Below are positions 4,568 through 41,631 of a DNA stretch of 64,000 nt, in pieces. Made by a program: the position numbers and the translations under genes. The stretch lies in NCBI GenBank assembly GCA_041659325.1, contig JBAZYN010000002.1, positions 206,082 to 270,081 on the forward strand, written 5' to 3'. Below the pieces are notes generated by a model. It worked only from the letters and a program-made list of their open reading frames with translations. It did no database searches and was not told the origin of the DNA. Source of the stretch: Candidatus Shapirobacteria bacterium (GTDB lineage: Bacteria; Patescibacteriota; Microgenomatia; UBA12405). Position 1 is the stretch's first letter. Each line of letters starts with the position of its first letter.

Positions 4568-5884
4568 ATGAGAAGAAATGGCCATGCCTGCGGGCAGGCA
4601 GGTTTTACAATTATTGAGTTATTGGTGGCGATATCGATAATGGCAGTATTGTCGGTTATTGCCTTTGGCCAATACAGGCAGTCGAAACTAAAGGCGAACG
4701 ATGTTCGGAGGAAGGCAGATTTGAATTCACTTTATAAAGCGATACTGACGGTATACAACGATTCGGGGGTCTTTCCCTCTAATAGTAGTATCCCCTGGGG
4801 AGTGGGGTTGACGGCCAGTGACGGGACTTCATATATGAAGCAAACACCGGTGGATACAAATCCGGCTTTGCCATATTATGTAGAAACGAGGGATGGGGGG
4901 AAGAAAGTAGCTATTTTTTCGAATTTGGAGAACGTGGAGGATTCGGAATATAACAAATATTGTCCGGGTTGCCCGGGTAATCCGTCGTGCCGGAATTCTA
5001 ATTTTGGTTATCGAGCGGGTAACGGACTGACTTATCACTATGTGGTTTTTAGCTCAAATACATCTTATGGGGATTTTGGATTGAATTGTGATATAGTGGC
5101 GTTACCCACCAGTACACCGGTACCTCCCACTAGTACACCAGTTCCACCGACCAGTACGCCGGTACCTCCCACTAGTACACCAATACCACCAACTAGTACA
5201 CCAGTGGCAGCCACCAGTACACCCGTGTCGGCAACCAGTACACCAGTCCCACCAACCAGTACACCGGTGGCACCGACCACTTCACCGCCGCCACCAACAA
5301 GTACACCGATAGTACCGACACCAACATCAACTTGCACTAATCCGGTGTGTCATAGAGATTGGGATACGGATGGGTACGGTGATCCGGGGGTGGCCAATAA
5401 TACCGGATGTGCATCGTGTGTGGCAGGATATGTTATTGATAATAGCGATTGTTGTGATAACAATAATTTGATAAGACCGGGATCGGCATATTATTCAACT
5501 CCTCACGCATCTTGTGTTGGGGTAGGGAGCACTTGGGATTATGATTGTAGTGGTACAGTTACATTCGCGGTAGGGGCGACTTCTGTGTCACTTGCGGGAA
5601 GGCTAAAATCCGGGGGATATTTTCGATACAGAGGGCCTGATTGTGCAGGATGGTCGCCATCGGAAACCGGATATCTGGGATTTGACGCTCAATATATAAC
5701 TCAGGCTGACTGTGGTAAAAACTATTATCTTTGCGACGATGAGGATCTGTCAGTGTTTGATGACGGCCAGGTGTATTCAAGAAAATCGGCAACAGGTGTT
5801 TGTGAAAATATTACCCCGTACTGGATGACAGCGCCCGGGGTTTGTACTTCTCTCGGGTGGCAACAGACAGTTAAGTGTCGATAA
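4568..5884 (+). CDS. type IV pilin-like protein (prepilin N-terminus) with (TSTPVPP)n linker and a Cys-rich C-terminal DTDGYG domain
   Basis: Leader MRRNGHACGQAG followed by FTIIELLVAISIM (class III signal, G/FTxxE). Ten or more TSTPVPP repeats. C-terminal domain CHRDWDTDGYGD...CCDNNNLIRPGSAYY...WDYDCSG, homologous to the ORF 9297-10733 product. Confidence 0.65.
   Translation: MRRNGHACGQAGFTIIELLVAISIMAVLSVIAFGQYRQSKLKANDVRRKADLNSLYKAILTVYNDSGVFPSNSSIPWGVGLTASDGTSYMKQTPVDTNPALPYYVETRDGGKKVAIFSNLENVEDSEYNKYCPGCPGNPSCRNSNFGYRAGNGLTYHYVVFSSNTSYGDFGLNCDIVALPTSTPVPPTSTPVPPTSTPVPPTSTPIPPTSTPVAATSTPVSATSTPVPPTSTPVAPTTSPPPPTSTPIVPTPTSTCTNPVCHRDWDTDGYGDPGVANNTGCASCVAGYVIDNSDCCDNNNLIRPGSAYYSTPHASCVGVGSTWDYDCSGTVTFAVGATSVSLAGRLKSGGYFRYRGPDCAGWSPSETGYLGFDAQYITQADCGKNYYLCDDEDLSVFDDGQVYSRKSATGVCENITPYWMTAPGVCTSLGWQQTVKCR
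4581..4603. repeat. copy of palindrome GCCATGCCTGC(C/G)GGCAGGCAGG, here encoding the pilin leader peptide (GHACGQAG)
   Basis: gccatgcctgcgggcaggcaggtt matches the copies at 3263, 28694 and 54771. Confidence 0.7.
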
Positions 5885-5952
5885 GATAAATTTGCGGTAA
5901 AAAGATATATTTTGTATTTGTGGATTGAGGTGGGGTTTGTTATTCTGAGTTC

Positions 5953-7983
5953 ATGCAGAAGATATTGAAGTGGTATGTAAGAATTGTTATTATGTTGTTT
6001 CCGATTTTCTTTTTGCCGGTAGTTACCGATATATTTGGATTTGGAAAGAGCTGGTTTTTGGGAGTAACGGCACTAATCGGTCTGGTTTTGTGGGTGGCAG
6101 AAATACTGATCACTAAAAAAAATAGTATCAGGGTAAACAAGCCCTTTTGGCTAGTATTGGGGTTGACTGTATGGGCGGGGATTGTGTGGACGAGGCTGAG
6201 TGTGGGAGTGCAGATGAGAACGATGATGGCGCCGATGGGGTGGGGTTTTTTGGTGGCGATGCTGATTTGGTTTTTTCTGTGGTTGCAGGTATCGGAAAAA
6301 GAGGAGACTAATAAACAATTGTGGTTTTTGTCGGTATCGGGGGTGGTGGTAGCGATAACTTCTATGGTGGTTTTTATGATTCCCACGGCTAGGCTGCCAA
6401 TTTTATTGCCGAAGGATAACCCGATCCTGTCTATCGGGCAGGGGTGGTCTGTGACGGGATCACTGATGAGCGAGGTAGCATTTATGCTTTTACTGGTGAG
6501 CCAGTGGGTAAAAAGATTGTTGGCGAAACTAAAAAATAAAGACGGAAGCGATGGGTATATGGTTGAGGCGGTAATGGCAGCGGTTTTCGGACTGGTATTG
6601 CTTTTGGATGTGTATAGACTGGCGACGGGCGGTCTTTTGATGCTGGATAAAAACAGCTCCTGGGTAATTGCAGCAGAGACGCTGAAGCGGTCACCATTTT
6701 TTGGAGTCGGTTTTGGGAATTTTTCCGAAGCATTTAGTCTGTACCGACCGGCACAATATAATTTGACAAAATATTGGGCGAACGGATTTAATACATCCTC
6801 GATGGGAATATTGAATATATGGACGGAACTGGGGATTGTGGGACTGTTGCTGGTAGTAATGTTGGTTAGTGCTTGGGCCAAGACGAAAAGAAGAGGTGAT
6901 TTTTGGTTGGTGGGGATGTTTTTGATTTTGTTTGTCATACTACCAATGGATTTGATGATCTGGTTTGCGGTGATGTGGTTACTAGCGGGAGGTTTGTTTG
7001 AGAGCCGGGAAATAAAATTAACTTTGAATGTGGGCGAAAATAACCTTAATATTGGGCCTTGGATTTTGGGTTTAATTTTGACGAGTGGAGCGATTTTTGG
7101 CGGATATCATTGGGTGAAAATTTTGCGAGGAGAGATGTTTTTGAGGGAGTCCTTTGTGGCTTCATCGAAGAATAACGGCGGGTTGACCTATGATTTGCAG
7201 ATTAAAGCAATCGGACAAAATAACACCTTTGCGGAATACAGAAGAATTTATTCACAAACGAATTTGGGGCTAGCTCAGGTGATGTTGTCAAACAAAGATG
7301 TAACCGACGATGATAAACAAAAAGCATCGACTTTGATTCAACAATCAGTGAGGGAGGCAAAATCAGCGGTAGCCCTGGAAAGTAACAATGCGGTTTATTG
7401 GACAAATCTGGCAGCAATTTATAAGGCCCTGGTGGGATTGGTAGACGGAGCGCCTGATTGGAGTTTTCAGGCATATCAGCAGGCGGCGACGTTGGATCCG
7501 GTTAACCCGTTGATTAAATTGGATATGGGATGGTTGCTGTTTGCGGCCGGAAGGTATGATGAAGCTGATAGGGTGTTTGAACAAGTGGTGGTCAATAAAA
7601 CCGATTATGCCAATGGTTGGTATAACTGGGCATATACGGCCAAAAAAAGTAACAGGTTGGCAGATGCGGTCCAGAGACTTTCTCAGGCGGTGGCGTTAGT
7701 ACCCGTGGATTCAGGTGATTACGAAAAAGCAACGAAAGAACTTTTGGATTGGAAAAAGGAACTGGATGAGGCGATGAAGAAGCAGGCTGATGCTGCGAAA
7801 GCGACGACTGCCAAGCAGGCCGAGACTTTGCAGACGTCTGAACCACTGCCGACTGCTGGAAAAGTGACAGTTCCAAATGAAGAGATGGAACCACCGGAGA
7901 CTCTGCCAATACCGACGGTGGAAGTGGTAACACCAACGCCAACGACTACCGGACCGACAATGACACCAACCGGATCGCCTTAA
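5953..7983 (+). CDS. polytopic membrane protein, O-antigen ligase (Wzy_C)-like, with C-terminal TPR repeats and a Thr/Pro tail
   Basis: More than 10 predicted TM helices in the first ~400 aa. TPR-like helical repeats follow (AVYWTNLAAIYKALVGL...AYQQAATLDPVNPLIKLDMGWLLFAAGRYDEADRVF). Confidence 0.45.
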   Translation: MQKILKWYVRIVIMLFPIFFLPVVTDIFGFGKSWFLGVTALIGLVLWVAEILITKKNSIRVNKPFWLVLGLTVWAGIVWTRLSVGVQMRTMMAPMGWGFLVAMLIWFFLWLQVSEKEETNKQLWFLSVSGVVVAITSMVVFMIPTARLPILLPKDNPILSIGQGWSVTGSLMSEVAFMLLLVSQWVKRLLAKLKNKDGSDGYMVEAVMAAVFGLVLLLDVYRLATGGLLMLDKNSSWVIAAETLKRSPFFGVGFGNFSEAFSLYRPAQYNLTKYWANGFNTSSMGILNIWTELGIVGLLLVVMLVSAWAKTKRRGDFWLVGMFLILFVILPMDLMIWFAVMWLLAGGLFESREIKLTLNVGENNLNIGPWILGLILTSGAIFGGYHWVKILRGEMFLRESFVASSKNNGGLTYDLQIKAIGQNNTFAEYRRIYSQTNLGLAQVMLSNKDVTDDDKQKASTLIQQSVREAKSAVALESNNAVYWTNLAAIYKALVGLVDGAPDWSFQAYQQAATLDPVNPLIKLDMGWLLFAAGRYDEADRVFEQVVVNKTDYANGWYNWAYTAKKSNRLADAVQRLSQAVALVPVDSGDYEKATKELLDWKKELDEAMKKQADAAKATTAKQAETLQTSEPLPTAGKVTVPNEEMEPPETLPIPTVEVVTPTPTTTGPTMTPTGSP

Positions 7984-8056
7984 AATGCGACCGAAATTGA
8001 TAAGGGGACGATTGAAGATGCCTTTTTGAACAGGAAGAAATTAAGAAATCGGGAAA

Positions 8057-9259
8057 TTAGTTGATTATCCACCACTTGAATTCAATCGGTTCAGGGATGG
8101 GGGAATCAAGACCGACAGTGAATGAAGTGTTGGTTTTGGAAATTACACGGAGACTCTGGTGCTTGCCACCTTTTATTACACTGAGATAGACCTGTGAGGA
8201 AGGAGCAAGGTTTTTATTTTGAAGATTGATTTCTTTGGTGGCTGAAGGAAGGGTGGTTTGGCCGGAAAAGGAATTAGTGTCGGTGAGGTTTTCAACATTG
8301 ATGCTTTTTGATGTTTCGGGGGCGGCGATAATCAGACCTGTCCCGATAGGCAAGCCGGAGTCTGCCTGAATGATGGGAGGATTGTCCTGAAGATGGATGG
8401 TGGGGGATGGTGACGTAATTGGTAATCTGTAATCTGTAATCGGTAATTGTTTTGAATCGCTAGAGCTTTGGGAGACTAATTTTTCCAGTGCGAGTTTTTC
8501 ATTTTCAACTTGGGTTTTTTGATCTAGATCGGTAATCAAGGGCAGAAGAGTGGTGTAGGTTTGAAGAGCTTGGGGGATCAGGCCGGTTTGTTGTTGGAGA
8601 CGGGCTAAATCGTAAAAATTTTGGGCTTTGGTGGGCTCCAGAACAACTGTTTGGGTGAGATAGGCAAGGGTTTGAGCAGCATCACCTTTTTTGGCGTACA
8701 TAGAGGCCAAATCACGGGTAATTTCGGCGGAATCGGGGTTGAGCTTTTCGGCGGAGGAGAGATCGGAAATGGCCTGATTAATCAGCTCGGGTTTTGAGCC
8801 GGCAAGGGATTGAAAGATGCGGCTGCGTTGATAATAGCCCCGGTAGTCTTGAGGGAATTCTTTGATGGAATCGGTGGCGGATAAGATGGATTGATTGAGA
8901 AGGCTGATGATAGTTGGTTGAGAGGGCGGACACGTCGGTCCGCCCGTACATGATTGTTGCAATTGGAGAGCTTGGCTGAAATATTGTTGGGAGGTCAGAA
9001 GATAGTGTTGAATTGATTTGGGGACTTGGGTTGGCGAAGGAGATGTAACTGGTAATCTGTAATCTGTAATCTGTAATTGATTAGAATTAGCAGAATCTTG
9101 GGATTTAAATAAAATTAGGGAGCCAAAAGATATGAGGGTGAGGCCGGAAATGGAGATGAGAGGAATAAGGGAGGGTCTCGTATTTTTTGGGGGAGTAGTA
9201 GAAAGTGGTCTAACCCCGAGGGATTCAAGTTTTTGGATTTGGTCGGGGGTGAGATCCAT
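8057..9259 (-). CDS. membrane-anchored TPR-like protein with ITDYRLP(I/V)TSPSPT repeats and C-terminal WWIIN domain
   Basis: N-terminal TM (LIPLISISGLTLISFGSLILF). ITDYRL segments are encoded by the GTAATCW repeat. A GC-rich hairpin copy (8924-8950) sits in frame. The C-terminus ...SFTVGLDSPIPEPIEFKWWIIN matches the C-terminus of the 2584-aa protein. Confidence 0.5.
   Translation of the reverse strand: MDLTPDQIQKLESLGVRPLSTTPPKNTRPSLIPLISISGLTLISFGSLILFKSQDSANSNQLQITDYRLPVTSPSPTQVPKSIQHYLLTSQQYFSQALQLQQSCTGGPTCPPSQPTIISLLNQSILSATDSIKEFPQDYRGYYQRSRIFQSLAGSKPELINQAISDLSSAEKLNPDSAEITRDLASMYAKKGDAAQTLAYLTQTVVLEPTKAQNFYDLARLQQQTGLIPQALQTYTTLLPLITDLDQKTQVENEKLALEKLVSQSSSDSKQLPITDYRLPITSPSPTIHLQDNPPIIQADSGLPIGTGLIIAAPETSKSINVENLTDTNSFSGQTTLPSATKEINLQNKNLAPSSQVYLSVIKGGKHQSLRVISKTNTSFTVGLDSPIPEPIEFKWWIIN
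8414..8448. repeat. GTAATCW heptad repeat in-frame in ORF 8057-9259
   Basis: gtaattggtaatctgtaatctgtaatcggtaattg; the reverse complement encodes ITDYRLPIT. Confidence 0.8.
9045..9078. repeat. GTAATCW heptad repeat in-frame in ORF 8057-9259
   Basis: gtaactggtaatctgtaatctgtaatctgtaatt. Confidence 0.8.
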
Positions 9260-9296
9260 AAATTAGTTTAAGGGATAATTTCGAAATTTTTAGGAG

Positions 9297-10733
9297 TTAA
9301 TGGCAGTTGGCGGTAGCACTGGTCGAGATAATGCAAGTTGCTTTGTTGCCACCGCCGGTGACTGCTTTACAGGTACCGCAAGAGCCGCTATAACTAGCTG
9401 AGCTGCCAATATTAGATTTCACAGTGCAATCGTTGGAACATAGATATGTGCTTGTTCCGCAAGGAGTATTGGCGGCAGTACGACAGGTATACCCGAGGGA
9501 ACCAGAGGTACAGTTGCTGCTTGTCCAATAACATTTGGCACTGGTGCTGTAGTAATAACCATATACGTTTTCCCTTTCAAGAGTATTACTGCAGTTATAA
9601 TCCCATGGAGAGCTGGCCCCGACGCAGGCGGTACTGGCAGCGTAATAAGCGGTGACGCCGGTATTGAAGCTTTTGCCAACTCCAACAACATCACAACAAT
9701 CATCGCCGGAGGCGACATATCCGCCCGGGGCGGCACCGCAGCTGCCGACACTGGACGTACCAACACCATAACCATCGGTATCAGCGTCACGGTAGAAGGT
9801 GGTACAACCAGCACCGGAGGTACAGTTGCCATCGGTAGCAATACAGGCAGAGGTAATATATTTGCTACTGCCGACACTGACGGCGCTGGAACCGGCGCCG
9901 GTATTATCGGACCTGGTACTTCCAGTCCCGCTACAGGCACGATAATAAATGGTGCCGGAACAGGTGTAATCGGTGCAGCTATAACCGGTACCGGCACTGG
10001 TACCGATGTCGGGGATAATATCTACGGCGGTAGTACCGGCTGATTTACATACATAGCCATCGGCGACGTTGATAGTGCCGTTGGCGGTATCGCAGGCACC
10101 GGCATTGTCGCAGTTGCCACTGGGACCGGTGCGGATACATTTGTCGGCGGAACAGGTGGTGTAGGTGGCGGCACATTCGGTAAATAAATCTTCTGCGGCG
10201 GATTGGTTGGCGACGGCGCCGGTGACACATTTGTTGCAGGTGCCGGCGGGATTGGCCCCGGAAGGACAGGAGGTATTTGGGTCGGAATCGATAGTATCTG
10301 GATAGGAGATGCCGATTTTTGGAGTGACATTGGCCGGAGGGGTGAGGGCGACGACAGGGAGGGTGGAACCCGGATAGCCATCGTTGTCGGTATCGGATAG
10401 ATAAGGGCGGTATTTAAGGTATATTTTTTTGTCGGCGGAGAGGGTAAGAAAACAGTCGGTACAACCTCTTAGGTCAATGCTACCAACAACCAGGGTGCCG
10501 CCAATAACCAGGCTAGTATTGGTGCCGGTTAAGGTAAGAGTGGAGGAATTTGCTACCCCCTGAGCCCCATTATCAAGATAAAGGTTGGTGACATTGCAGC
10601 TACTACCATCAGTGGCGCTATAGGAAGTAGTGCCGGAGGTGCAGGCGGCAAAAATTGATGATGAAGAACTAAAAAAATAAACATTAATAATAATTAGTAT
10701 TGCAACGATGGATTTAGCGCATGGGGAAGTCAT
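9297..10733 (-). CDS. secreted Cys-rich protein with DTDGYG domain (paralogous to pilin C-terminal domain)
   Basis: Signal/TM MTSPCAKSIVAILIIINVYFF. YRDADTDGYGVG...DDCCDVVGVGKSFNTGVTAYY...WDYNCSN aligns with the C-terminus of the 4568-5884 product. Confidence 0.5.
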   Translation of the reverse strand: MTSPCAKSIVAILIIINVYFFSSSSSIFAACTSGTTSYSATDGSSCNVTNLYLDNGAQGVANSSTLTLTGTNTSLVIGGTLVVGSIDLRGCTDCFLTLSADKKIYLKYRPYLSDTDNDGYPGSTLPVVALTPPANVTPKIGISYPDTIDSDPNTSCPSGANPAGTCNKCVTGAVANQSAAEDLFTECAATYTTCSADKCIRTGPSGNCDNAGACDTANGTINVADGYVCKSAGTTAVDIIPDIGTSAGTGYSCTDYTCSGTIYYRACSGTGSTRSDNTGAGSSAVSVGSSKYITSACIATDGNCTSGAGCTTFYRDADTDGYGVGTSSVGSCGAAPGGYVASGDDCCDVVGVGKSFNTGVTAYYAASTACVGASSPWDYNCSNTLERENVYGYYYSTSAKCYWTSSNCTSGSLGYTCRTAANTPCGTSTYLCSNDCTVKSNIGSSASYSGSCGTCKAVTGGGNKATCIISTSATANCH

Positions 10734-11283
10734 ATTTTAGAAGTTGGTTTTGGCTGTCGAGAGCCTGGAAAACCATATAATAAGTATAATCGTAAGAATC
10801 AGTGATGATGGAATCACCCTGCCAAGTACCATCGGTTGGGGTGCCGGAGATGAGTTTTAGGTTTATGGCAGCTGTTTGCGTGGTGTCAGTGGTAAGTTCG
10901 TAAAAGGCTTTGGTAATGGGAAGGGCACTTTTTAGTTTGATAGTGACAGTTTGGCGACCGGCAATTTGGGGATCGTAGGGATCGATGGTTAGGTGATAGG
11001 GAATGGGACCGGTTTTTTTGGTACTTTGAACGGTAAATTCCTGATATCCGCGAAGGGTCGGTTTTGATGGTTTAAGGGTGGGGGTAGCTTTTGTTGGAGA
11101 AATTGAGGTATTTTGGGAATTATTTTTAAAGATGAGAGGAGTTTTTTTTCTGGACTTGAGATTGAGATTGTAGTAAAAGATGCCAAAAATCAGAAAGATG
11201 AGAAATACACAAATCAGGATAAGGAAAATAAGCTCGGTGTCTTTGGCGAGATAGTGACTATTTTGATGAGGTTGGTCAATCAT
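10714..11283 (-). CDS. hypothetical single-pass membrane protein
   Basis: N-terminal TM (ELIFLILICVFLIFLIFGIFYY). No recognisable domain. Confidence 0.35.
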   Translation of the reverse strand: MIDQPHQNSHYLAKDTELIFLILICVFLIFLIFGIFYYNLNLKSRKKTPLIFKNNSQNTSISPTKATPTLKPSKPTLRGYQEFTVQSTKKTGPIPYHLTIDPYDPQIAGRQTVTIKLKSALPITKAFYELTTDTTQTAAINLKLISGTPTDGTWQGDSIITDSYDYTYYMVFQALDSQNQLLKYDFPMR

Positions 11284-11358
11284 GTCGGTTGGCGGTGATT
11301 AAGTATTATTATTTGTGAGATTAATGTCAAGCGGGGTGGGTGGGGTGTATGCAGATAC

Positions 11359-14300
11359 CTAATTTATAATCCACCAGTTGACATCAATGTCTTTGTCGAG
11401 CTCTTGGTCGAGGCCAATAGTAAATGAGTCGGCTGATTTTGATTTTAGATAGATAACCTGGTTTCTGGTTGAACCAACCGGAGTCAGATAGACCATGGAG
11501 TTTGGAGTCAATTTGTTGTTGACGATGGTAAGCTCGGTTTTCCCGGCGGGGAGGGTGAGAGTGCCGGCGGCGGCATTGGAACTGATTTGGGCAGAGGAGG
11601 AGGCTTGAGGGGAAGCGGAGTCGGCTGCTATTATGGTAGCGCTTTCGGTGGCGATGCTGATTTTTTGGGTATCGATTTCTTTAGCGGTTAATTTTCCACT
11701 TATGCTGGCGTCTTGAGTGGCTAACATATTGGCAATTAATGACCCAGAGACAGTAGCATCTTTAGTAGTAATATTACCGGTGGCGGTGATGTTGCCACCA
11801 ACATTAAGTTGGCCGTTTACAGTGACTTCACCGGTATCAGAAATAACTAAAGTGTCTGCCAGAATGTGAACCGAGCCAATACCAGAGTGTTGAAGATAGA
11901 GAGCGGTATTGGCGGTGTCGATGTAGTTATCTTTGATAATGACATCACCGACGGAAAGAGTGCCGGTGATGAAAGCATTGGCTAATTGAGAATCACCATT
12001 GATGGCTAGTTTACCGCCGACGACTAAGTTGTCAGTTAGAGTCAGGCTGCCGGTTAACTTGGCAGAGTCGGAAGCAATATCGGTAATCCATTCTTTTGAC
12101 TCGGCTAAAAGCGGGGAAGGAGTAGCCTCAGGGGGGGCGGTGATTAATTTTTGGATTTCGGCTCTAAGAGAGGAGATTTTTTCGGTCATGAGGTCGCCAA
12201 AGGAGCCTTCGCGACCGACGATACTGTCGGCATAAAGAGTGCCGGTGATGGTGGCGTCTTTGACTTCCAGGTTGTCCGTCTTGATATTTTTGGAAATCAG
12301 AGAATCTATATAGCCGGTTTTGACTTCGATATTTTCGGTAGTGATGTTTAGTGCTTCTAAATCATCTACCTGAACCAGGGGAGAAACAATTTTGTCCCGG
12401 ATGGTGAGGTTGTCGGTGACAATGTCTTTGGCGGTGATGGCGCCGGTTTTGAGGTTGGCAATGGTGGCAGAGAAGAAATTGCCGATTTCTTTGACGACAT
12501 TGTTTTGAGAATCAGTGAGAGTATAAATACCATCGCCATTTAGGGATAGGTTGTGCTGATAGTCGGCGGGGTTGAGTGAGGTTTGGATATCGAGATTGTC
12601 AATTTCATCGGGAGAGTCGATGATATAGCCAACCTCATCGGATTGGCGGGTGTTGTCTTGGTCGACAAAATCCCATCTGGGGGCGGTAAAACGGTAGGAA
12701 ATTTTGGATGGGGAGGAAGAATAGATATAAATAGTTTTGTTGGCTTCATCAAGTTCGTACCAAACTTTAGAGCTGTCGGAAGGAGTTAAGAGAACGGTTA
12801 GCCGGCTGATATTTTCGGCCATGTTGGTGGTTTTGCTGAATAGCCAGAGGTCAGAGCCGACGGGCTGAGAGGTTAGTTTAAAACCACCCCGATAGCCGAC
12901 TTGCGGAACATATTGAGAGGTGTTGATGCTGCCGACAACTTCTTCTTTTTGACCGGGCATGGCCGTTAACCAGGTGGCATATTTTGAGCCATTGATAGTG
13001 TAGGGAGGATCGATAAGACCAACGGTGATTTTACCGGCGCCGTCCTGAACTATTAAGGTGCCGCCGACATTAAGAGTACTGTTGACGGTAAGGGAACTAC
13101 CAATGGTGACGTTTCCGGTCATACCGATATTGCCATTGGTGCTCAAAAAAATTGCACTCCTGTCCCAAACAACAGCGTTTGCGGTGCTGCCAACGCCGGT
13201 ATTGCCAACGTTTAAAAGAAGGCCGCCGGCAGCACCACCAATACTTTCAATCTTGGCGGCGGGATCGGAACTGCTGTGTTTCCAACCACCGCTATAAAAG
13301 GCCCCAAATTTGATAGACCCAAGGTTAGCTAAAGAGAGTGAGGAACTGTTGGCGTCGGCATTGTTTAAGTCCAGATAAAACATTGGGTACTCAGAGGCAG
13401 TAGAGTCATAATATTTTGGGGCGGACAAGATACCGGCGGTTCCGACGGTGAGGTTGCCGGTAATACCGATGCCGCCGGCAAAAATGTTGGTTCCCGTTCC
13501 ACTAATGTTTATGGTTCCATCTAAGGTAAGGTCTCCGGCCGCAGTTAGGTTTAAAACTTCATTAAATTGGGTAGAATAGTCGCTCGAAACTTTGAGAACG
13601 CTGGTTGCGCCGGTAGTGGTTGTGGTGTAAAAGCGGAAATCTTTGTCGATTAAGGTGTCGAAATGTAAAGCACTGGCACTTTGATATATCTGAGCATAAC
13701 CGGTGCTTTCATAGTTCTGAAGCTTTAAGAATTTATTAGAGTTGGCCGCACCAGTGAGGTGCACCAGTCCGCCGTAGATGTCTAATTTTGCCGTAGGATT
13801 GGTGGTGCCAATCCCCACATAACCGGTGTTGGTAATGGTTAGAGCCTGAGTATTGTTATTTATACCCAAGAAAGAGAGACCAGAGGAAGCGGCACTAATG
13901 TTGATATTGGTAAAGCCGGTATCGGTTAAGGTGCCTCCGAGACCAAGAATATTGCCGGTTAAATGGAGACCATTATCAGCCGCATAAGTAGTACCAGTAC
14001 TGGTATTGGTAATGGTAATAGAGGTACCGACCTGAGAAATACTGATACCAACTCCATTGATAAAGTTAACCTGAGAGAGAGAAGTAACGGGAGTAGTGTC
14101 ACCACTGTTGGTTTGGAGTCCCCAGTTTCGATAGTTATCATAAGTACCGGAATCAAAAGCCATACTCCCGAGGACTCTTCTGGTAACGACATTGGTAGTG
14201 GGATCAATGAAGAGAGCGGTAGTACCGGAACCGACAACAGTAGAAGCAGATAAAGTCAGAGTCCCACCTATACCGACATTACCGACAGTGGAGAGAGAAG

Positions 14301-17300
14301 TACCAATCCGTAAGTTACCAAAGGTAACCATGGCAGCAGTATCAATGTTCTGGGGTAAGGAGAGACCAATGGCACCGGTATTGGCAGAGACACTGATCTG
14401 ATTGGCAGTACCGGTTAACCAGGTAACACCAGTATTGATAATCTTGTTACCGTTGAGACCTAACCCGGAACCATAATCAACCGAGAGGACATTGTCAGAT
14501 GAGAGAGTCAGACCGACACCAGCGGCATAAGTGGTACCAATACCATCGATCCATTGAAGGCCTGTTTGGGTGGATGATAAGATTTGACCGGTAGTACCGG
14601 TAGAACCAGAAGCAAGAATAGTACCGGTAAGGTTGAGGCTACCGGTTAAGCTAACATCTCCGGCAGAGTAAATACCGCCAAACCCGACATTTAGGCCGTT
14701 TCTAACATAGAGATTATTACCGATATTGGCATTTTCAGAAGTATTTAGGTTGTTGGTAAGGATATTGCCGGCATTGATAGCGGGAGTATCTATACCGTTG
14801 ATATCGATAATTTCAATACCGGAAGTACCGTCGGCGATATAGGCATATTTTCCATGGACATAAGCTTTGTAAGCATTGCCGGGGGTGTCATAGGTAGTTA
14901 CCAGAGAAGGCGAAGCGGGATTGCTAATATCGATTATGTGCAGACCGGAGGTGCCGTCGGCAACATAAGCGTAACGGCCGGCAATAAAGACACCGTTGGC
15001 ATTTCCTGCAGTGTTATATGAGCCAACTTGAGCGGGGGAGGTGTTGTTTGAGATATCTACAACGAGTAATCCACTAGTGTTGGCGGCGATGTAAGCATAT
15101 TTACCATCAGCATAAATGTCTAATGCGGTAACACCGAGGGACAGGGTGCTAACAAGGGATGGAGAGGTGGAATTTGATATATTTAGAATATCCAGACCGG
15201 CGCTGCCGACGGCATAGGCGTAATTGTTTACTACAGAAACTCCGTTATATAGCCCCGGGTTGGTCACATATTCTCCCGTTTCGATGGGGCGGGCGGGGTT
15301 AGTAATATCAACAATTTGGAGGCCTTGCTTATAATCGGCGAGGTAGGCATATTTTCCGGAGATGTAAATATCTTTTGAAACACCTCCGGTTTTAACGGTA
15401 CCGCCGATACTGAGATTTTGAGGATCAGAGATATCGATAATCTGAAGATCAGTGTTTACCCCGTCGGCCAGATAGGCGTATTTTCCGGCGATGGCAATGG
15501 CGTTTGAGGGGAAACCGGCGGTGTTATAATCGTTAGTGATTACCGGGAAAGTGTTGTTGGAAATATCGAGGACAATCATTCCGGTGTAAGTGGAAACATA
15601 AGCATATTGGCCGGAAACGACGATATCATAGGCAGTTTCGCCGATAGAGAAGGTGGAGAGCGCTTCCGGAACACCGGAGATAGTTTGAAGGAAATTACCT
15701 CCGGAGAGAGTTAGTTTTGCACCCGGATTGGTTGTCCCTATCCCCACATACCCATTTTCTCTAATGGTCAGAGCCTGAGTATTGCTATTAACACCTAAGA
15801 TTGAGAGACCGGAGGAGCCACTACCAATGTTGATATTGGTAAAGCCAGCCTGATCAAGTGTGCCCCCCAGACCAATGGCATTAGTGTAGTTGGTTAAACC
15901 ATTAGAGAGAGTAAAGGCTCCGGTATTGGAATTAATACTTAAGACACCGGTATTGGTAATGGTTCTACCAATACCGGAACCGGAAAGAAGAATACCGGAA
16001 CCACCAGTCAGAGTAGTAATGAAGTCACCAGTGGAACCGATACCGACAAAAGAAGCAGCATGAAGACCATCGAGAACATCAGCATTAAGATTGGTAACCA
16101 GATTGGTACTCCCGACACTGACAAAGGTACCACCGACAGTCAGATTGGTAAGAGTGGCACTACCACTAACACCAATCCCACCATTAAAGGTCTGATAACC
16201 AGTCCAGACATTACTGGAACCAAGGTTAAGCTGGAAGTCAGCACCGGAGAGAGTGATACCATTACTGGCGGTATAGACAGTACCGGCCGGTAAAGCACCT
16301 TTGGTGATAATACCGGAACTGTCAATGTAGAGAACAGTACTGCCAACAGCAACATTGGTACCGGTGAGAGATAGAGTCCCACCGATACCGACATTACCGG
16401 AAACACCTAACCCGGAAGTGAAGTAACCATCGCCGACCACATGTAATTTGAAAAGAGGATCAGTGGTACCGATGCCGACGTCACCATTGCTATCTATTCT
16501 GATTCTGTAGTTTTCTCCTTGTTTAAGATCTATAACACCATAGCTTCCACTGGTAATATTACCTGTTCCTAATGTTAGAGCACCTGAATTACCAGAAGAT
16601 GATCCACCAGCGCCAGTAATAAGATTTACGTATCCGCCGTTGGCAGCAGAACCGGCTCGACCTGCTGTTATGGAAATGTGACCACCATTGCCGGCAGAAT
16701 AATCGACAGCACCGGCGAGGAGTTCGATATTTCCAATATCGCTTCTGCTCCCCCAGGCACCTGTGTTTTGGCCGTAAATATAGACATTACCACCAATAGT
16801 ATTACCGGTGTATGTTTGTTTACCGACATAGACATCTCCTCCATACCCAGCGCCACTTGTGTCGTATTGTCCTCCCTCCAGATAAATATTCCCGCCACGG
16901 AAGCCACTACCCCCTCCACGGGTTCCACCTCTGATATAAACCTCTCCTCCGTTGGCATTGCTAATTCCTGCACCACCAATAATATAGGCATCTCCGGCAT
17001 TGTTACCATCACTTTTCCCCCTCATGGTGACATCACCTGTTGACAGTGTATTTATGGACAGTTGTATTGTCCCGGCAGGATTAACTACTTCGAGTTTGTT
17101 GGTTGGAGCGGTGGTGCCAATGCCGACGTTACCACTAGAAGCGATATACAGACTTTGACTATTCCCCAGACCTAAAAATGACAAAGAGAAGGAAGAAGTA
17201 CCGATATTAGTATTTTGATCAAGAGTGCCACCTAGACCAATTCCGGTATTGCCAATAGCCTGGAGACCATTGGTGGCCATGTTAAAGAAACCGGTGCCAC

Positions 17301-19113
17301 CGATCTGGAGAAAACCAGCAGAAGAGATACCATCAAGATAATCAGCAGAAAGATTGGTAACAGTATTGGTGCTACCAACAGAGACAAAGGTACCACCGAC
17401 AGTCAAATTAGTGAGAGTGGTACTACCACTGACACCAATCCCACCATTAAAGGTCTGATAACCAGTCCAGACATTACTGGAACCAAGGTTAAGACGAAAA
17501 TCGTTTCCCGAAAGAGTGATCCCGGTGCTAGCGGTGTAGGCAACACCTTCAGGCAGGTCGATCCAGGTAGGAGTGTCGGCGCCATTGCTAGCAAGGATTT
17601 GGCCGGAGTTACCCACAGACGAATTGGCTAGTTTTGTACCATTTCCATAGATGATTGATCCATTGGTGGCGGCTAAGTTATCGAGTAAATTTAGTTGGGT
17701 AGCGGTGGCTGAGATGAGAGTGTTGCCGATTGATATATTGGTAGAACTGAGGGTAGCGCCAACATAGACATTTCCGGCGGCAGTAACTTCAAAGCGGGTA
17801 TGAAGCTCAGACGTGTCGCCGAGGCCGGTATTGTAATTTTGAAATTGAAGAAAGTTGTAGCCCCGAAGTTGGTTGCCCACCTGGCCACTGAATAAGTTTC
17901 CGGTGGCTAAATTGGCGTTGGTGGCATCGATGAAGCCGCCGATACCGGCAGGAGGAGTGGTGCCTTCTGTTAAAAATTGAATCACTCCGGCCCCATCGGG
18001 GTTGATGGTAATGTCGCCACCGCTGCCGTCGGTGGCCTTGATCAATACCCCCTGACCCTCGATGCCAAGTGAGCCGTTGGTGGCTTTGATAGTGGGGACA
18101 TAGGCGCCACTATCGCCAAGATTTAGGTTGCCCTGTTCGTCGAGGACGACCACGTTGTTGCGATAGGCGACACCGGAGGGACCAATGCCTAATCCCTGAA
18201 GTGTTTCTGAGTTTAAGGCGTAGGCGACAGTGGCGATTTGCTGACGGGGATCCATGACCTCATCGTCGGCGGTGATTTCTAGCCAAACGGCAGTGTGTTC
18301 AGAAAAAACGCTAGAGGGAATTTCTAAACCATGAGTTTTACCTATAATTACGGAAAATATACCGTTGGTATCGGGAGTAACTACTTGGCTAGCGCCGGTT
18401 TCAGAGGTGTAAAGTGAAGTGCCGACACCCAGGGTGGGGTCGTCAAAGAATTTGAAGACGATGCCAGTTTCGGAGCTAATCGGGTTGCCATCCTGGTCGG
18501 TTAGACGACCCTGAAAGGAAAATTGACGGGTGGGACTTTTGGGAGCGTTGGCGGTGGAATAGGCAAGTTGCCTTTTGGCTTTGAGAATGGTTTGTGAGTA
18601 GAGCCCATAGCCGAGGCCGGAGAGGATGATAAGAATTATGGAGACGAGAAGGTATTGGTTAAAAAGAGAAAAGCCTGGTCGTTTTACACCTGGTAAGGGA
18701 GTGGGTGGGTTAAGTAGGTTTTTGATATACTTTCTTATATTTGATTGAGGCGTGTTTTGAGATTTTAGGTAGTATTTGAAGCTCTCGACAAGCTTGGTTG
18801 GAGAAGGTCTCTGGTGTTTTTTTAGGGCGGACTTGAAAAAGTTTGAAGTAATCAGTTTTTGATCAAGGGCGAATTGGCAGAACTTGTTTAAGGATGCCAG
18901 GCGTCTGGCGGAATTGTTTTGAGTGGAAAGATAGGAGACGTATTGGCCAAAGGCAGCTTTGGAAAATATGTTGACAACTCTCTCCTCGGTGTAGGCGATA
19001 AATTTCCTGGTATCGACTAGATAATTACGAATCGTATTGGGATTGTAACTGCGCTTTTCAAGCCAGGAATGGAAGCTATTGAGCACAAGCTCAATATTTT
19101 GTCGATCACCCAT
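11359..19113 (-). CDS. giant (2584 aa) membrane-anchored surface protein: N-terminal integrase-SAM-like cytoplasmic domain, TM, Gly-rich beta-helix-like repeats, GIGTTNPxxKL repeats, LVIVD beta-propeller repeats, C-terminal WWIIN domain
   Basis: N-terminus IELVLNSFHSWLEKRSYNPNTIRNYLVDTRKFIAY. TM LLVSIILIILSGLGYGLY. LVIVD repeats (GLQIVDITNPARP, GLHIIDISNPASP, GIEIIDINGIDTP). VGIGTT(N/A/D)P motifs x5. C-terminus ...SFTIGLDQELDKDIDVNWWIIN. Confidence 0.7.
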   Translation of the reverse strand: MGDRQNIELVLNSFHSWLEKRSYNPNTIRNYLVDTRKFIAYTEERVVNIFSKAAFGQYVSYLSTQNNSARRLASLNKFCQFALDQKLITSNFFKSALKKHQRPSPTKLVESFKYYLKSQNTPQSNIRKYIKNLLNPPTPLPGVKRPGFSLFNQYLLVSIILIILSGLGYGLYSQTILKAKRQLAYSTANAPKSPTRQFSFQGRLTDQDGNPISSETGIVFKFFDDPTLGVGTSLYTSETGASQVVTPDTNGIFSVIIGKTHGLEIPSSVFSEHTAVWLEITADDEVMDPRQQIATVAYALNSETLQGLGIGPSGVAYRNNVVVLDEQGNLNLGDSGAYVPTIKATNGSLGIEGQGVLIKATDGSGGDITINPDGAGVIQFLTEGTTPPAGIGGFIDATNANLATGNLFSGQVGNQLRGYNFLQFQNYNTGLGDTSELHTRFEVTAAGNVYVGATLSSTNISIGNTLISATATQLNLLDNLAATNGSIIYGNGTKLANSSVGNSGQILASNGADTPTWIDLPEGVAYTASTGITLSGNDFRLNLGSSNVWTGYQTFNGGIGVSGSTTLTNLTVGGTFVSVGSTNTVTNLSADYLDGISSAGFLQIGGTGFFNMATNGLQAIGNTGIGLGGTLDQNTNIGTSSFSLSFLGLGNSQSLYIASSGNVGIGTTAPTNKLEVVNPAGTIQLSINTLSTGDVTMRGKSDGNNAGDAYIIGGAGISNANGGEVYIRGGTRGGGSGFRGGNIYLEGGQYDTSGAGYGGDVYVGKQTYTGNTIGGNVYIYGQNTGAWGSRSDIGNIELLAGAVDYSAGNGGHISITAGRAGSAANGGYVNLITGAGGSSSGNSGALTLGTGNITSGSYGVIDLKQGENYRIRIDSNGDVGIGTTDPLFKLHVVGDGYFTSGLGVSGNVGIGGTLSLTGTNVAVGSTVLYIDSSGIITKGALPAGTVYTASNGITLSGADFQLNLGSSNVWTGYQTFNGGIGVSGSATLTNLTVGGTFVSVGSTNLVTNLNADVLDGLHAASFVGIGSTGDFITTLTGGSGILLSGSGIGRTITNTGVLSINSNTGAFTLSNGLTNYTNAIGLGGTLDQAGFTNINIGSGSSGLSILGVNSNTQALTIRENGYVGIGTTNPGAKLTLSGGNFLQTISGVPEALSTFSIGETAYDIVVSGQYAYVSTYTGMIVLDISNNTFPVITNDYNTAGFPSNAIAIAGKYAYLADGVNTDLQIIDISDPQNLSIGGTVKTGGVSKDIYISGKYAYLADYKQGLQIVDITNPARPIETGEYVTNPGLYNGVSVVNNYAYAVGSAGLDILNISNSTSPSLVSTLSLGVTALDIYADGKYAYIAANTSGLLVVDISNNTSPAQVGSYNTAGNANGVFIAGRYAYVADGTSGLHIIDISNPASPSLVTTYDTPGNAYKAYVHGKYAYIADGTSGIEIIDINGIDTPAINAGNILTNNLNTSENANIGNNLYVRNGLNVGFGGIYSAGDVSLTGSLNLTGTILASGSTGTTGQILSSTQTGLQWIDGIGTTYAAGVGLTLSSDNVLSVDYGSGLGLNGNKIINTGVTWLTGTANQISVSANTGAIGLSLPQNIDTAAMVTFGNLRIGTSLSTVGNVGIGGTLTLSASTVVGSGTTALFIDPTTNVVTRRVLGSMAFDSGTYDNYRNWGLQTNSGDTTPVTSLSQVNFINGVGISISQVGTSITITNTSTGTTYAADNGLHLTGNILGLGGTLTDTGFTNINISAASSGLSFLGINNNTQALTITNTGYVGIGTTNPTAKLDIYGGLVHLTGAANSNKFLKLQNYESTGYAQIYQSASALHFDTLIDKDFRFYTTTTTGATSVLKVSSDYSTQFNEVLNLTAAGDLTLDGTINISGTGTNIFAGGIGITGNLTVGTAGILSAPKYYDSTASEYPMFYLDLNNADANSSSLSLANLGSIKFGAFYSGGWKHSSSDPAAKIESIGGAAGGLLLNVGNTGVGSTANAVVWDRSAIFLSTNGNIGMTGNVTIGSSLTVNSTLNVGGTLIVQDGAGKITVGLIDPPYTINGSKYATWLTAMPGQKEEVVGSINTSQYVPQVGYRGGFKLTSQPVGSDLWLFSKTTNMAENISRLTVLLTPSDSSKVWYELDEANKTIYIYSSSPSKISYRFTAPRWDFVDQDNTRQSDEVGYIIDSPDEIDNLDIQTSLNPADYQHNLSLNGDGIYTLTDSQNNVVKEIGNFFSATIANLKTGAITAKDIVTDNLTIRDKIVSPLVQVDDLEALNITTENIEVKTGYIDSLISKNIKTDNLEVKDATITGTLYADSIVGREGSFGDLMTEKISSLRAEIQKLITAPPEATPSPLLAESKEWITDIASDSAKLTGSLTLTDNLVVGGKLAINGDSQLANAFITGTLSVGDVIIKDNYIDTANTALYLQHSGIGSVHILADTLVISDTGEVTVNGQLNVGGNITATGNITTKDATVSGSLIANMLATQDASISGKLTAKEIDTQKISIATESATIIAADSASPQASSSAQISSNAAAGTLTLPAGKTELTIVNNKLTPNSMVYLTPVGSTRNQVIYLKSKSADSFTIGLDQELDKDIDVNWWIIN

Positions 19114-19950: not shown

Positions 19951-20385
19951 ATGATCAGTAAGAGGAGAAATGTTGTTTTGGTAGCGGCAGCGGTTTTTGG
20001 TATCGGTTTTGTATATTTTCTGGCGACTTTTGTAGTACCAAAGATTCTGGTCACTATGACAAAGGCGGCACCGGCAACGAAAATATCAATGTCAAATTCC
20101 TATCTTTTGGGATCAAAGATATTGTGTAAAGCTGACGGGACGGATAAATGTGGAGTGAATGTTTTTTTGGGTGATTCTGAGGGGAGGCCGGTGGCGGGAA
20201 AGATGGTGGCTTTGTCGACGACAGGGGTGGAAGCGGAAGTGTCGCCCGAAGCGCAAAAGTCAGATCAGACGGGCAAGACCGGTTTTACATTGACGTCGAA
20301 TAAAGAGGGTCAGGTAACTGTTGCGGCGAGTGTGGATGGGACACCGATGGAGAAATCGGTGGTGGTGACTTTTAGAGGAAACTAG
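19951..20385 (+). CDS. small membrane-anchored protein with one bacterial Ig-like (Big_1-like) domain
   Basis: N-terminal TM. NSYLLGSKILCKADGTDKCGVNVFLGDSEGRPVAGKMVAL...QVTVAASVDGTPMEKSVVVTF. Confidence 0.5.
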   Translation: MISKRRNVVLVAAAVFGIGFVYFLATFVVPKILVTMTKAAPATKISMSNSYLLGSKILCKADGTDKCGVNVFLGDSEGRPVAGKMVALSTTGVEAEVSPEAQKSDQTGKTGFTLTSNKEGQVTVAASVDGTPMEKSVVVTFRGN

Positions 20386-20805
20386 CTAGGGGGTAAAGGT
20401 AACCTTTACTTTTTGGGAAATTTCTTTTGAGTTTACCTTGGCAACAATTTCATATTTTCCGGGAGTGGAGGAAGTAAGGTCGAAAACGCTTTTTCCCATG
20501 TCGTCGCTGGTGGCCTGGATATCAGTTAAATTTATCGCTGGAGGTTTGGTCAGCTCTACCTCCTGGTTTCCGACGCCCATGCCCCGACCGTCCAGTAAAA
20601 AAACAGTAATGCGGATTTTTTCTTTACCATCGGCCTTGGCCTGGAGGGGGGAGGCAAAAAGATAGGAGTTTTCTAAAGTAATCGGACTAGTGCTGTTGAG
20701 CCCGGTGGCCCGGCCGGAATAGATAGCGGGGCGAACGACCAGATAGGTGACGGCAATGAGAGCGAGAAGGAGGATTGCGATGGTAAGCAGGGACTTGGTT
20801 GACAT
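20386..20805 (-). CDS. paralog of 19951-20385: membrane-anchored Big_1-like Ig domain protein (convergent, stop codons abut)
   Basis: NSYLFASPLQAKADGKEKIRITVFLLDGRGMGVGNQEVEL...KYEIVAKVNSKEISQKVKVTF. Stop codons at 20383-20385 (+) and 20386-20388 (-) are adjacent. Confidence 0.5.
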   Translation of the reverse strand: MSTKSLLTIAILLLALIAVTYLVVRPAIYSGRATGLNSTSPITLENSYLFASPLQAKADGKEKIRITVFLLDGRGMGVGNQEVELTKPPAINLTDIQATSDDMGKSVFDLTSSTPGKYEIVAKVNSKEISQKVKVTFTP

Positions 20806-39475: not shown

Positions 39476-39878
39476 TAATATTATGGTAGCATTTTTGGAG
39501 ATGGGCAAGAAATGGTGGAGGTCCAAGTGGATTATTGATTTAATCTTGGTTTTGGGGATATTAATGGTGGCGTTGGGGGTGGGAATGGAAATCGAGGGCC
39601 AAAAACAGGTTTCTGAAGTGGTGGTGGAGAAGGGAGCAGTAAAGGGAGTAGTGGTGGCCCCGTCGGCGGCGGGAACAGGAATTAGAACAGGGATAAATAT
39701 CAACAAGGCCACGGCCGAAGAGTTGGACGTTTTGCCTGGTATCGGGCCGGCGATAGCTAAAAGAATAATAGAGTATAGGGAGAAAAACGGTGGTTTTTTG
39801 AATACAGAGGAAATTAAGTTAGTCAGCGGGATAGGAGAGAAATTGTTTGAAAAAATTAAGGACAAGATCACTATCTGA
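39465..39878 (+). CDS. comEA: competence protein ComEA (TM + helix-hairpin-helix DNA-binding domain); probable start at 39501 (MGKKWW...)
   Basis: GININKATAEELDVLPGIGPAIAKRIIEYREKNGGFLNTEEIKLVSGIGEKLFEKIKDKI is the ComEA HhH signature. Confidence 0.75.
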   Translation: MDCINIMVAFLEMGKKWWRSKWIIDLILVLGILMVALGVGMEIEGQKQVSEVVVEKGAVKGVVVAPSAAGTGIRTGININKATAEELDVLPGIGPAIAKRIIEYREKNGGFLNTEEIKLVSGIGEKLFEKIKDKITI

Positions 39879-40914
39879 ATGGATGGTAATGGCGGGATTG
39901 GTATTGGTGGGAATGGGGGTGGTTTCGATGTACAAGTTTATAAATAAGGATAGTTTGATTGGGGTAATAAATCAAAGTTTGCCGCCGCGGGAGGCGGGAT
40001 TGTTGGCCGGAATGCTTCTGGGGGATAGAAGTGGGTTTGAAAAAGATTTTTGGAAAGACTTAAAGGTGTCGGGAGTGGTGCATTTGGTGGTAGTGAGCGG
40101 GACAAATGTGGTGTTATTAAGCAGCTTATTGATTGAAAATTTGGCCCAATTTTTGGGGCGGAAAAAGACAATTGTGGGAGTATTGACTTTGGTATGGGGG
40201 TATGCCGGGATGGTAGGGTGGGAACCACCGGTAATCAGGGCAGTTTTGTTGGTCTCGATTTTATATTGGGCGCAACTTTTGGGAAGAAAATTCGATGTTT
40301 GGAGAAGTTTGATTTTGGTGGTAGCGATGATGGTGATTGCTGACCGGACAATGATTGGTGGGGTTAGTTTTTGGCTGTCGTTTCTGGCGTTTATTGGAGT
40401 AATAAGTCAATTACGAATTAACAATTACGAATTACGAATTAAAAATAAATATATATTAAATATGGTTGGTAATTTTATCACGACGGTGTGGGTGAGCTTG
40501 TGGATTACGCCGGTGATGGCAATGGTGTTTGGAAAAATTAGCCTGATATCGCCTTTTACAAATCTTTTGGTAATGTTTTTGGCGGAAACAGTATTTGTTG
40601 TGGGCGGAGTGGGGGTGGCGGCGGGGTTGATTTGGCCGTTTTTGGGCGAGGTGGTGTTGATATTAATTTTGCCCCTGTTGAAATATTTTGTAGTGATAAC
40701 GGAGTGGATGGGGAATATGAAATGGGCGAGTTTTGAAGTGAAATTTAATTGGTTGATGTTGGCGGGGTGGTATTTGATTTTGGGGTGGTTTTTGTTAAGA
40801 AGAAAGGGCGGACACGCCGGTCCGCCCGTACAGAAAATCGTGGGGGCGGGCCCAATTGATGCGCCCCCACAGAATAATGTAGGGGTCGACCGGGGTGTCG
40901 ACCCAAAAGGATAA
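39847..40914 (+). CDS. comEC: ComEC/Rec2 N-terminal part (DUF4131 + Competence TM domain); C-terminus is read-through into REP-like repeat
   Basis: LLAGMLLGDRSGFEKDFWKDLKVSGVVHLVVVSGTNVVLL...VLLVSILYWAQLLGRKFDVWRSL is the competence-domain motif. It carries an in-frame ATTACGA insert (QLRINNYELRIKNKY). The tail KGGHAGPPVQKIVGAG is encoded by the GC-rich hairpin repeat. Confidence 0.7.
   Translation: MKKLRTRSLSEWMVMAGLVLVGMGVVSMYKFINKDSLIGVINQSLPPREAGLLAGMLLGDRSGFEKDFWKDLKVSGVVHLVVVSGTNVVLLSSLLIENLAQFLGRKKTIVGVLTLVWGYAGMVGWEPPVIRAVLLVSILYWAQLLGRKFDVWRSLILVVAMMVIADRTMIGGVSFWLSFLAFIGVISQLRINNYELRIKNKYILNMVGNFITTVWVSLWITPVMAMVFGKISLISPFTNLLVMFLAETVFVVGGVGVAAGLIWPFLGEVVLILILPLLKYFVVITEWMGNMKWASFEVKFNWLMLAGWYLILGWFLLRRKGGHAGPPVQKIVGAGPIDAPPQNNVGVDRGVDPKG
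40409..40442. repeat. ATTACGA heptad repeat in-frame inside comEC
   Basis: caattacgaattaacaattacgaattacgaatt. Confidence 0.8.
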
Positions 40915-41620: not shown

Positions 41621-41631
41621 AGGAATAATTT

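Follow-up and report, generated by a model that had tools for sequence, protein, structure and literature searches.

Modular pilins and related systems

Type IV pilins in which a small pilin module is followed by an additional functional module are known as modular pilins, and 1219 such proteins, distributed among 264 architectures, have been reported (Raynaud et al., 2021; PMC8179133). They are widespread, and they are argued to polymerise by means of their pilin module, either at the tip of the fibre or, if the linker between the modules is flexible, in its body (PMC8179133). In Streptococcus sanguinis, for instance, PilB associates a pilin module with a von Willebrand factor A (vWA) module and PilC associates it with a lectin module (PMC8179133). 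Here, we describe a gene of this organization found in a stretch of 64,000 nucleotides of DNA from Candidatus Shapirobacteria, a Candidate Phyla Radiation (CPR, or Patescibacteria) lineage; this whole stretch is called the window below. The gene (4568..5884, plus strand) encodes a protein of 438 residues, made of a prepilin N-terminus, a pilin module, a long linker rich in Thr and Pro (TP linker) and a Cys-rich head. A related head ends a 478-residue secreted protein encoded 3.4 kb away on the other strand. We propose that the 438-residue protein is probably a modular minor type IV pilin.

As in the described modular pilins, the protein has a class III signal peptide, a small pilin module and a C-terminal module that also occurs outside pilins: the head is carried by the 478-residue protein as well, and its first part is found in thousands of proteins of the PF11617 family. 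By analogy, a pilin of low abundance that displays a binding module on the fibre would be expected. The head is however Cys-rich and related to PF11617, unlike the vWA and lectin modules. The linker is a TP repeat of 77 residues, as compared to the short linker of the class, but since flexible linkers are allowed (PMC8179133) this is a difference of degree. Further differences are that the gene is an orphan located outside a pil cluster and that the host belongs to the CPR. A pilin bearing a grafted functional module belongs in any case to this already described class and does not represent new machinery.

The PF11617 family presumably corresponds to the InterPro entry IPR021655. If so, the same motif family has already been seen on components of type IV pili: the published Datasets S1 and S2 contain pilins (IPR012902-IPR006860-IPR021655xN) and PilY1-type adhesins with IPR021655 (IPR021655-IPR021655-IPR008707) (PMC8179133). 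Those proteins have several canonical units, accompanied in the pilins by a FecR-type domain, whereas the present protein has a single divergent unit, which Pfam does not see, followed by an extension of about 105 residues. Two large minor pilins of type IVb systems, CofB of enterotoxigenic Escherichia coli (ETEC) and TcpB of Vibrio cholerae, resemble the present protein in having a pilin module, a flexible linker and extra C-terminal domains, and they are thought to be located at the tip (PMC8179133). However, their extra domains, a beta-repeat and a beta-sandwich, are unrelated to the head, their system is of the type IVb, and trimeric tip complexes are documented in their case. The 'Pam' pilus of CPR bacteria (bioRxiv 10.64898/2026.03.03.709456) was also considered as a possible relative; it is unrelated and is built of Ig-like, donor-strand pilins.

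The pilin module

The product of the open reading frame (ORF) 4568..5884 exactly matches the NCBI entry MFA5828533.1, annotated as 'type II secretion system protein', and a protein of the Logan assembly. An earlier note on this DNA had assigned a prepilin N-terminus to the ORF, and the assignment is borne out. The N-terminal sequence is MRRNGHACGQAG|FTIIELLVAI, where the class III signal (leader) peptide MRRNGHACGQAG, of 12 residues (4568..4603, plus strand), ends with Gly before Phe+1 and is followed by FTIIELLVAISIMAVL. Gly-1, Phe+1 and Glu+5 are all present, and the N_methyl motif matches aa 10-33. Two models score above their cutoffs on the ORF, PF07963 (28.3 bits versus 21.2) and TIGR02532 (27.1 bits versus 16.3).

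The module itself extends from aa 13 to 178 (4604..5101, plus strand). According to profile, model and relatives, it comprises the F1/E5 residues, a hydrophobic alpha1N region, a predicted long helix and beta-sheet, and four Cys near its end. A profile built from the module and four relatives (A3) matches solved type IV pilins, namely Geobacter PilA (E 7e-17) and Neisseria PilE (E 5e-11, over positions 10-151). In the AlphaFold2 (AF2) model (pLDDT 69), a helix covering residues 15-66 precedes beta strands, and when this model is compared to the PDB with Foldseek the top matches are type IV pilins, with weak scores (E 0.24-1). One relative, P0166, shares 69% identity with the module by BLASTP and 71% in alignment A3. 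The nearest complete relative, P0167 (161 residues; 44% by BLASTP, 46% in alignment A3), is encoded within a PilB-PilT-PilC-pilin-PilD-pilins cluster. Within type IV pilus clusters, the pilin modules closest to this one belong without exception to short proteins that lack a head. In a survey of GTDB genomes, 80 PilB loci were obtained, distributed among Shapirobacteria and other members of the CPR, none of them on the window's own contig. These loci gave 161 pilin-module domain matches, the 45 listed ones being located in ORFs of 127-306 residues, and their ORFs were matched neither by a hidden Markov model (HMM) of the head nor by the unit HMM presented below. As judged from these comparisons, the N-terminal part of the protein appears to be a genuine pilin module.

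It may nevertheless be imagined that the prepilin N-terminus is used only as a signal for secretion and membrane anchoring, that the protein remains in the cell membrane, and that the TP stalk lifts the head through the envelope, as in a stalked adhesin. Such a role would suit a gene located away from any pil cluster, in a window that has no other pilin-like N-terminus. It would also suit a paralogous head carried by a protein that is not a pilin, and a stalk of 77 residues, far longer than the short loop of S. sanguinis PilB. Long stalks of this kind are typical of wall-spanning spacers. On the other hand, what precedes the stalk is more than a signal: the globular domain of pilins is present there in full and is conserved, and its relatives are found inside complete type IV pilus clusters. 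Glu5, which is required for the assembly of type IV pilins, has moreover been retained. A mere surface anchor is, in our opinion, unlikely, and we favour a pilin module that is incorporated into a pilus.

The Cys-rich head and its copy on a secreted protein

The head corresponds to aa 256-438 (5333..5881, plus strand). With 183 residues and 14 Cys, it is larger than the domain of about 130 residues and 10 Cys delimited in the earlier note, and it matches the profile derived from its family over all 176 positions of this profile. The second head is located at the end of a secreted Cys-rich protein of 478 residues and 35 Cys (9297..10733, minus strand), for which exact matches exist in NCBI (MFA5828536.1, hypothetical), JGI and Logan. 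This protein begins with a probable Sec signal peptide, MTSPCAKSIVAILIIINVYFFSSSSSIFA|A (10650..10733, minus strand), read from the sequence alone. Its ortholog P0002 (679 residues, 58% identity), encoded in a syntenic operon of the JGI sample 3300013138, begins with a typical MKKIIFLITTIILISPKSVQA|Q signal peptide. The paralogous head occupies the last 175 residues of the 478-residue protein (aa 304-478, 17 Cys; 9300..9824, minus strand) and includes, at about aa 308-385, a PF11617-like unit recognized by the unit HMM. In the N-terminal part of the same protein, at aa 114-120 (10374..10394, minus strand), a motif scan located another copy of the motif in degenerate form, DTDNDGY, to which the unit HMM gives a weak match of 8.3 bits.

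The head of the pilin and the C-terminus of the 478-residue protein share 31% identity over 161 residues (BLASTP with composition adjustment, E 1e-13). The Smith-Waterman score of the two heads is 190, to be compared with 49 +/- 8.7 for 2000 shuffles (z = 16); by part, z reaches 14.9 for the N-terminal region and 8.0 for the C-terminal one. An alignment of three sequences, the pilin head, the 478-residue protein head and that of P0002 (A1), contains 12 invariant Cys columns together with the invariant blocks RD-x-D-x-D-G-Y-G, GYV, DCCD and WDY-x-CS. Conserved spacing of this kind excludes a similarity of composition only, and the proposal that one domain is shared by two proteins encoded on opposite strands is thereby upheld.

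In alignment A1, the pilin head is 33% identical to the head of the 478-residue protein and 31% identical to that of P0002. Because it is about equally distant from both, and because the two copies of the window are only 31% identical in the pairwise comparison, the paralogy of the heads appears to be old and not to result from a recent swap or copy. Since a paralogous head, at 31% identity, ends the 478-residue secreted protein, related heads would be presented on two carriers, a pilin and a Sec-secreted protein belonging to the operon of a giant protein (see below).

P0002 (2567-4606 of contig L001) has two peculiarities of its own. Its middle Cys-rich module (CP.G.NP.GTCNKC...) is duplicated internally, and it has an extra, truncated DxDxDAYG unit devoid of the family-specific extension.

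Relation of the head to PF11617 units

Scans of both heads with Pfam and NCBIfam gave no match even at E 10, and the gathering score of PF11617, 27 bits, is not reached. When the profile of the three sequences was run exhaustively with HMMER against 1.84 billion representatives, 4962 proteins matched at E <= 1e-3. Among the listed matches, P0002 alone spans the full head profile. All the others cover the N-terminal part of the profile only (mostly positions of about 4-75), usually with many copies per protein, and the longer ones correspond to low-scoring read-throughs of two tandem units. Seven matches were scanned with Pfam models, and all seven are repeat proteins of PF11617 (Cu-binding_MopE, 'putative metal-binding motif'). 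An HMM derived from 231 of these units retrieved only two ORFs in a six-frame scan of the window, that of the 478-residue protein (E 7e-11) and that of the pilin (E 2e-9); this test is partly circular, the units having been picked with the head profile, but it has no bearing on the assignment of the source proteins to PF11617, which was made by Pfam. Finally, hhalign aligned the head family (A1) with a set of 22 units (A4) with a probability of 98.8% (E 6.5e-17). The aligned 64 columns cover the whole unit; in its second half, the head unit has two insertions, one of 6 residues and one of 4. Individual PF11617 units are 31-40% identical to the head, and the residues invariant with these units are D9, D11, D13, G14, Y15, G16, C26, G32, D39, C40, D42, C61, D69 and C72.

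From these alignments, the first 75 residues or so of the head appear to form a single divergent PF11617-type unit in which DxDxDG is intact. In the pilin, this unit would extend from about aa 261 to 333 (5348..5566, plus strand; DWDTDGYG...GYV...DCCD...PG...C...WDYDCSG). It conforms to the unit of about 65 residues of the PF11617 repeat proteins, [FY]YRDxDxDGYG...C..P.GYV....DC.D......PG...C....D..C.G. In contrast with these proteins, where the units are arranged in tandem arrays of 6 to 48, each head has one unit, and the 478-residue protein has at most one further degenerate motif. The head is also distinguished by a CC doublet, by the insertions of 6 and 4 residues and by the replacement of the ExCDGxDNDCDG block by AYY...C.G...WDY.CS; it lies below the Pfam threshold.

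The remaining 105 residues or so seem to constitute a Cys-rich extension private to the family formed by the pilin, the 478-residue protein and P0002. Among the matches listed from the 1.84 billion representatives, only one other protein, P0002, has this extension. A scan of JGI metagenome contigs with the head alignment gave just the contig of P0002 and PF11617 repeat proteins, and no further fusion of a pilin to a head. In a word-index search for homologs, the pilin head retrieved itself only, while the 478-residue protein retrieved only P0002 and one weakly matching PF11617 protein. The PDB contained no meaningful match to the head profile at the sequence level, and no prepilin N-terminus was seen among the top 150 PF11617-type matches. 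The profile search suggested in the earlier note for domains with the DTDGYG...CCD...WDYxCS signature did reveal a homologous family, and the head is not a domain without precedent, since its first 75 residues or so are of the PF11617 type. The head would be only partly new, with a PF11617-type start and a family-specific end of about 105 residues.

This relationship suggests another possible role, in which the head would be a metal-binding or structural element and not an adhesin, devoted to the capture of Ca2+ or Cu or to the stabilisation of the pilus or of the envelope. The homology of the first 75 residues to PF11617 units goes in this direction, as does the invariance of DxDxDG in all three members of the family. 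The motif DxDxDG is said to have been described by Rigden and Galperin, in 2004, as a calcium-binding loop motif, and in the head we infer it to be a putative calcium-binding loop. Among solved structures, the PF11617 unit profile matches MopE*, which is a copper protein (2vov, E 9e-5), as well as part of acyloxyacyl hydrolase. However, these matches say little on function, because PF11617 covers only the small putative metal site of MopE and is unspecific beyond it (PMC6189053). In addition, more than half of the head consists of the family-specific extension, where such a motif does not occur, and the binding of calcium need not exclude an adhesive role, since the two could go together. A purely metal-binding or structural head seems to us quite improbable, and an adhesive or ligand-binding head, possibly containing calcium, is preferred.

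The linker and the integrity of the fusion

The pilin module and the head are separated by a Thr/Ser/Pro-rich linker of 77 residues (aa 179-255; 5102..5332, plus strand), of the form (TSTPVPP)n, in agreement with the long spacer first noticed in this protein. At the DNA level, Tandem Repeats Finder (TRF) identifies an imperfect tandem repeat of 21 nucleotides (5104-5307), with 9.7 copies and 74% matches.

The same locus is found without stalk and head in a relative, L099 (ENA ERZ27250570, k141_261797, 1-726), which is orthologous to the window with about 80% nucleotide identity. The match covers the end of the gene for the M23 peptidase, the intergenic spacer and the whole pilin module. Downstream of the shared ...GGATTGAATTGT (G-L-N-C), L099 reads ATT TAA, so that a stop is located two codons past the last Cys of the pilin module. 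At the same point, the window reads GAT ATA GTG GCG TTA CCC ACC AGT ACA... and continues into the stalk and the head. Because the same locus encodes an ordinary short pilin in this relative, the stalk and the head appear to have been acquired or lost together, as a single unit, at the 3' end of the orphan pilin gene. It had been suggested earlier that the head might be a swappable adhesion or receptor-binding module. The head-less ortholog supports this insofar as the module looks detachable, but a recent swap is contradicted by the 31% identity of the two copies, indicative of an old paralogy.

One may then wonder whether the fusion is real. In an artefactual scenario, an error of assembly or sequencing in the TP-coding repeat would have joined a short pilin gene to a Cys-rich gene. 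The junction indeed adjoins a tandem repeat, the L099 ortholog is a short pilin with its stop at the junction, and the JGI/IMG call for the pilin gene gives a product of just 205 residues, starting from a GTG within the TP linker. However, the reading frame is open throughout 4568-5884 and NCBI calls the full 438 residues. The Logan assembly of the run SRR18595301, which is independent as an assembly but very probably derived from the same reads, gives an identical 438-residue protein with the same neighbours. The period of the repeat, which is imperfect with 74% matches, is divisible by three. Finally, a head gene beginning within the linker would lack its own signal peptide. The 205-residue call is an annotation difference. 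Because the frame is open, the NCBI protein has 438 residues and the Logan assembly is identical, an artefact is unlikely, and we attribute a very low probability to this scenario.

A proposed modular minor pilin and its possible role

Considering the properties of the different parts of the protein, the following mechanism may be envisaged. A prepilin peptidase would cleave the 12-residue leader after Gly, and the pilin module (aa 13-178) would be inserted into a type IV pilus, at low abundance, by means of its hydrophobic alpha1 helix. The 77-residue linker, probably extended and possibly O-glycosylated, would hold the disulfide-rich head off the fibre, with a span of about 20 nm if each residue contributes about 0.3 nm. 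The head itself would be disulfide-bonded, would bind Ca2+ and would serve in ligand binding or adhesion, allowing contact with host cells or surfaces.

Several points weigh against the idea of a modular minor pilin with an adhesive head. Machinery of type IV pili was looked for in the window, as the earlier note had advised: neither PilB, PilC, the prepilin peptidase PilD nor a second prepilin N-terminus is found within its 64 kb. The pilin gene is isolated from pil clusters, and the PilB, PilT, PilC and prepilin peptidase genes found in Shapirobacteria belong to other metagenome-assembled genomes (MAGs), from sister organisms; the presence of this machinery in sister Shapirobacteria is in itself favourable to the pilin identity. 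The Foldseek comparison lends weak backing to the pilin fold (E 0.24). Concerning the head, the AF2 model is poor (pLDDT 41, with an alignment of 8 sequences), only residues 1-40 being near 70. Because the head could not be modelled, the prediction provides no fold-based hint to its ligand. Beyond the label 'putative metal-binding motif', no function is established for PF11617, whose Pfam model also misses this copy. Adhesion, calcium binding, glycosylation and incorporation into a filament are, all four of them, inferred.

The leading candidates for host recognition by CPR bacteria are type IV pili. In Saccharibacteria, type IV pili are described as mediating host attachment (PMC9894109, PMC11623550). 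In this context, a detachable head, together with a head-less ortholog and a secreted paralog, would give a well-defined, testable candidate for what determines host binding in an uncultured groundwater lineage. It would also add to the known modular pilins one whose domain goes unrecognized in current databases. More speculatively, an episymbiotic CPR bacterium might display one family-specific recognition head, made of a PF11617-like calcium loop and the private Cys-rich extension, on two platforms, a type IV pilus of long reach, through a glycosylated stalk of about 20 nm, and a secreted partner of a giant surface protein, the pilin form having arisen by grafting of the stalk and the head onto an ordinary orphan pilin gene; we put this forward as a tentative and rather doubtful idea. 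If it were true that the head sets host specificity, grafts of a stalk and a head would be a simple way of retargeting pili to new hosts.

Neighbouring genes

The pilin gene is flanked by a gene for an M23/LysM peptidase and, 69 nucleotides downstream, by a gene for a polytopic membrane protein of 676 residues with C-terminal tetratricopeptide (TPR) repeats, according to TPR matches (5953..7983, plus strand). In P. aeruginosa and Acinetobacter, the pilA gene is followed by tfpO, an O-oligosaccharyltransferase gene (PglL family). The present arrangement recalls this pair in two respects. The gene that follows that of the pilin codes for a polytopic membrane protein similar to the PDB entry 9rmk, an 'Oligosaccharyltransferase' (phmmer, E 1.8e-5, aa 209-338). 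The match covers a SPFFGVGFGNF...TELGIVGLL core (GxGxGxF...ExGxxG), which resembles the motifs of PglL and O-antigen ligases. Moreover, the Ser/Thr-rich stretch of the pilin is a candidate acceptor of O-glycans. It differs from the pilA-tfpO pair in that the Wzy_C Pfam model does not match the 676-residue protein, in that this protein carries TPR repeats, and in that a histidine required in Wzy_C enzymes (PMC9829042) is not found at the aligned position: the two His of the HSHN block of 9rmk are aligned to TSSM. By sequence, the 676-residue protein has a significant, distant similarity to O-antigen-ligase-like oligosaccharyltransferases. It may add glycans to the TP linker, in the way TfpO does for pilins, or else represent an inactive relative. 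Its assignment as a pilin O-glycosyltransferase was examined and is kept only as a side remark: the similarity to 9rmk supports it in part, but neither a match to Wzy_C nor the conserved His accompanies it.

On the minus strand, the 478-residue protein belongs to a unit whose genes encode, in order, a giant surface protein of 2584 residues, a single-pass membrane protein of 189 residues, the 478-residue protein and a TPR protein of 400 residues. The first two genes, upstream in the unit (10714..19113, minus strand), are conserved in the same order beside P0002 in L001, so that the succession of giant protein, small membrane protein and Cys-rich protein genes is kept there. A C-terminal domain of about 50 residues ending in ...WWIIN is common to the 2584-residue giant protein (11359-19113, minus strand), the 400-residue TPR protein (8057-9259, minus strand) and the fragment of a giant protein encoded beside P0002 (L001, 14-1981). 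The N-terminus of the 2584-residue protein (17614-19113, minus strand) matches PF02899, the SAM-like N-terminal domain of phage integrases (23.7 bits versus a cutoff of 22.3). This match precedes a transmembrane segment, an unusual association.

Other features of the window

In the region 39847-42450 (plus strand), ComEC seems to be split into a gene with the Competence domain (39847-40914) and a gene with the metallo-beta-lactamase domain (41632-42450). Between the two parts lies an ORF of 212 residues with a weak match to IS200-like Y1 transposases (E 4e-4, below the cutoff). Elsewhere, two small abutting ORFs on opposite strands, 19951-20385 (plus) and 20386-20805 (minus), each match a bacterial Big_1 / invasin D3 Ig-like domain; this pair may have arisen by inverted duplication, or one of the two may be a shadow ORF.

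The plus strand of the window (1-64000) contains 18,263 G and 10,633 C, which corresponds to an overall GC skew of +0.26, far above usual bacterial values. The skew ranges from +0.06 to +0.48 in each gene examined, on either strand, the coding strands of the minus-strand genes being strongly C-rich.

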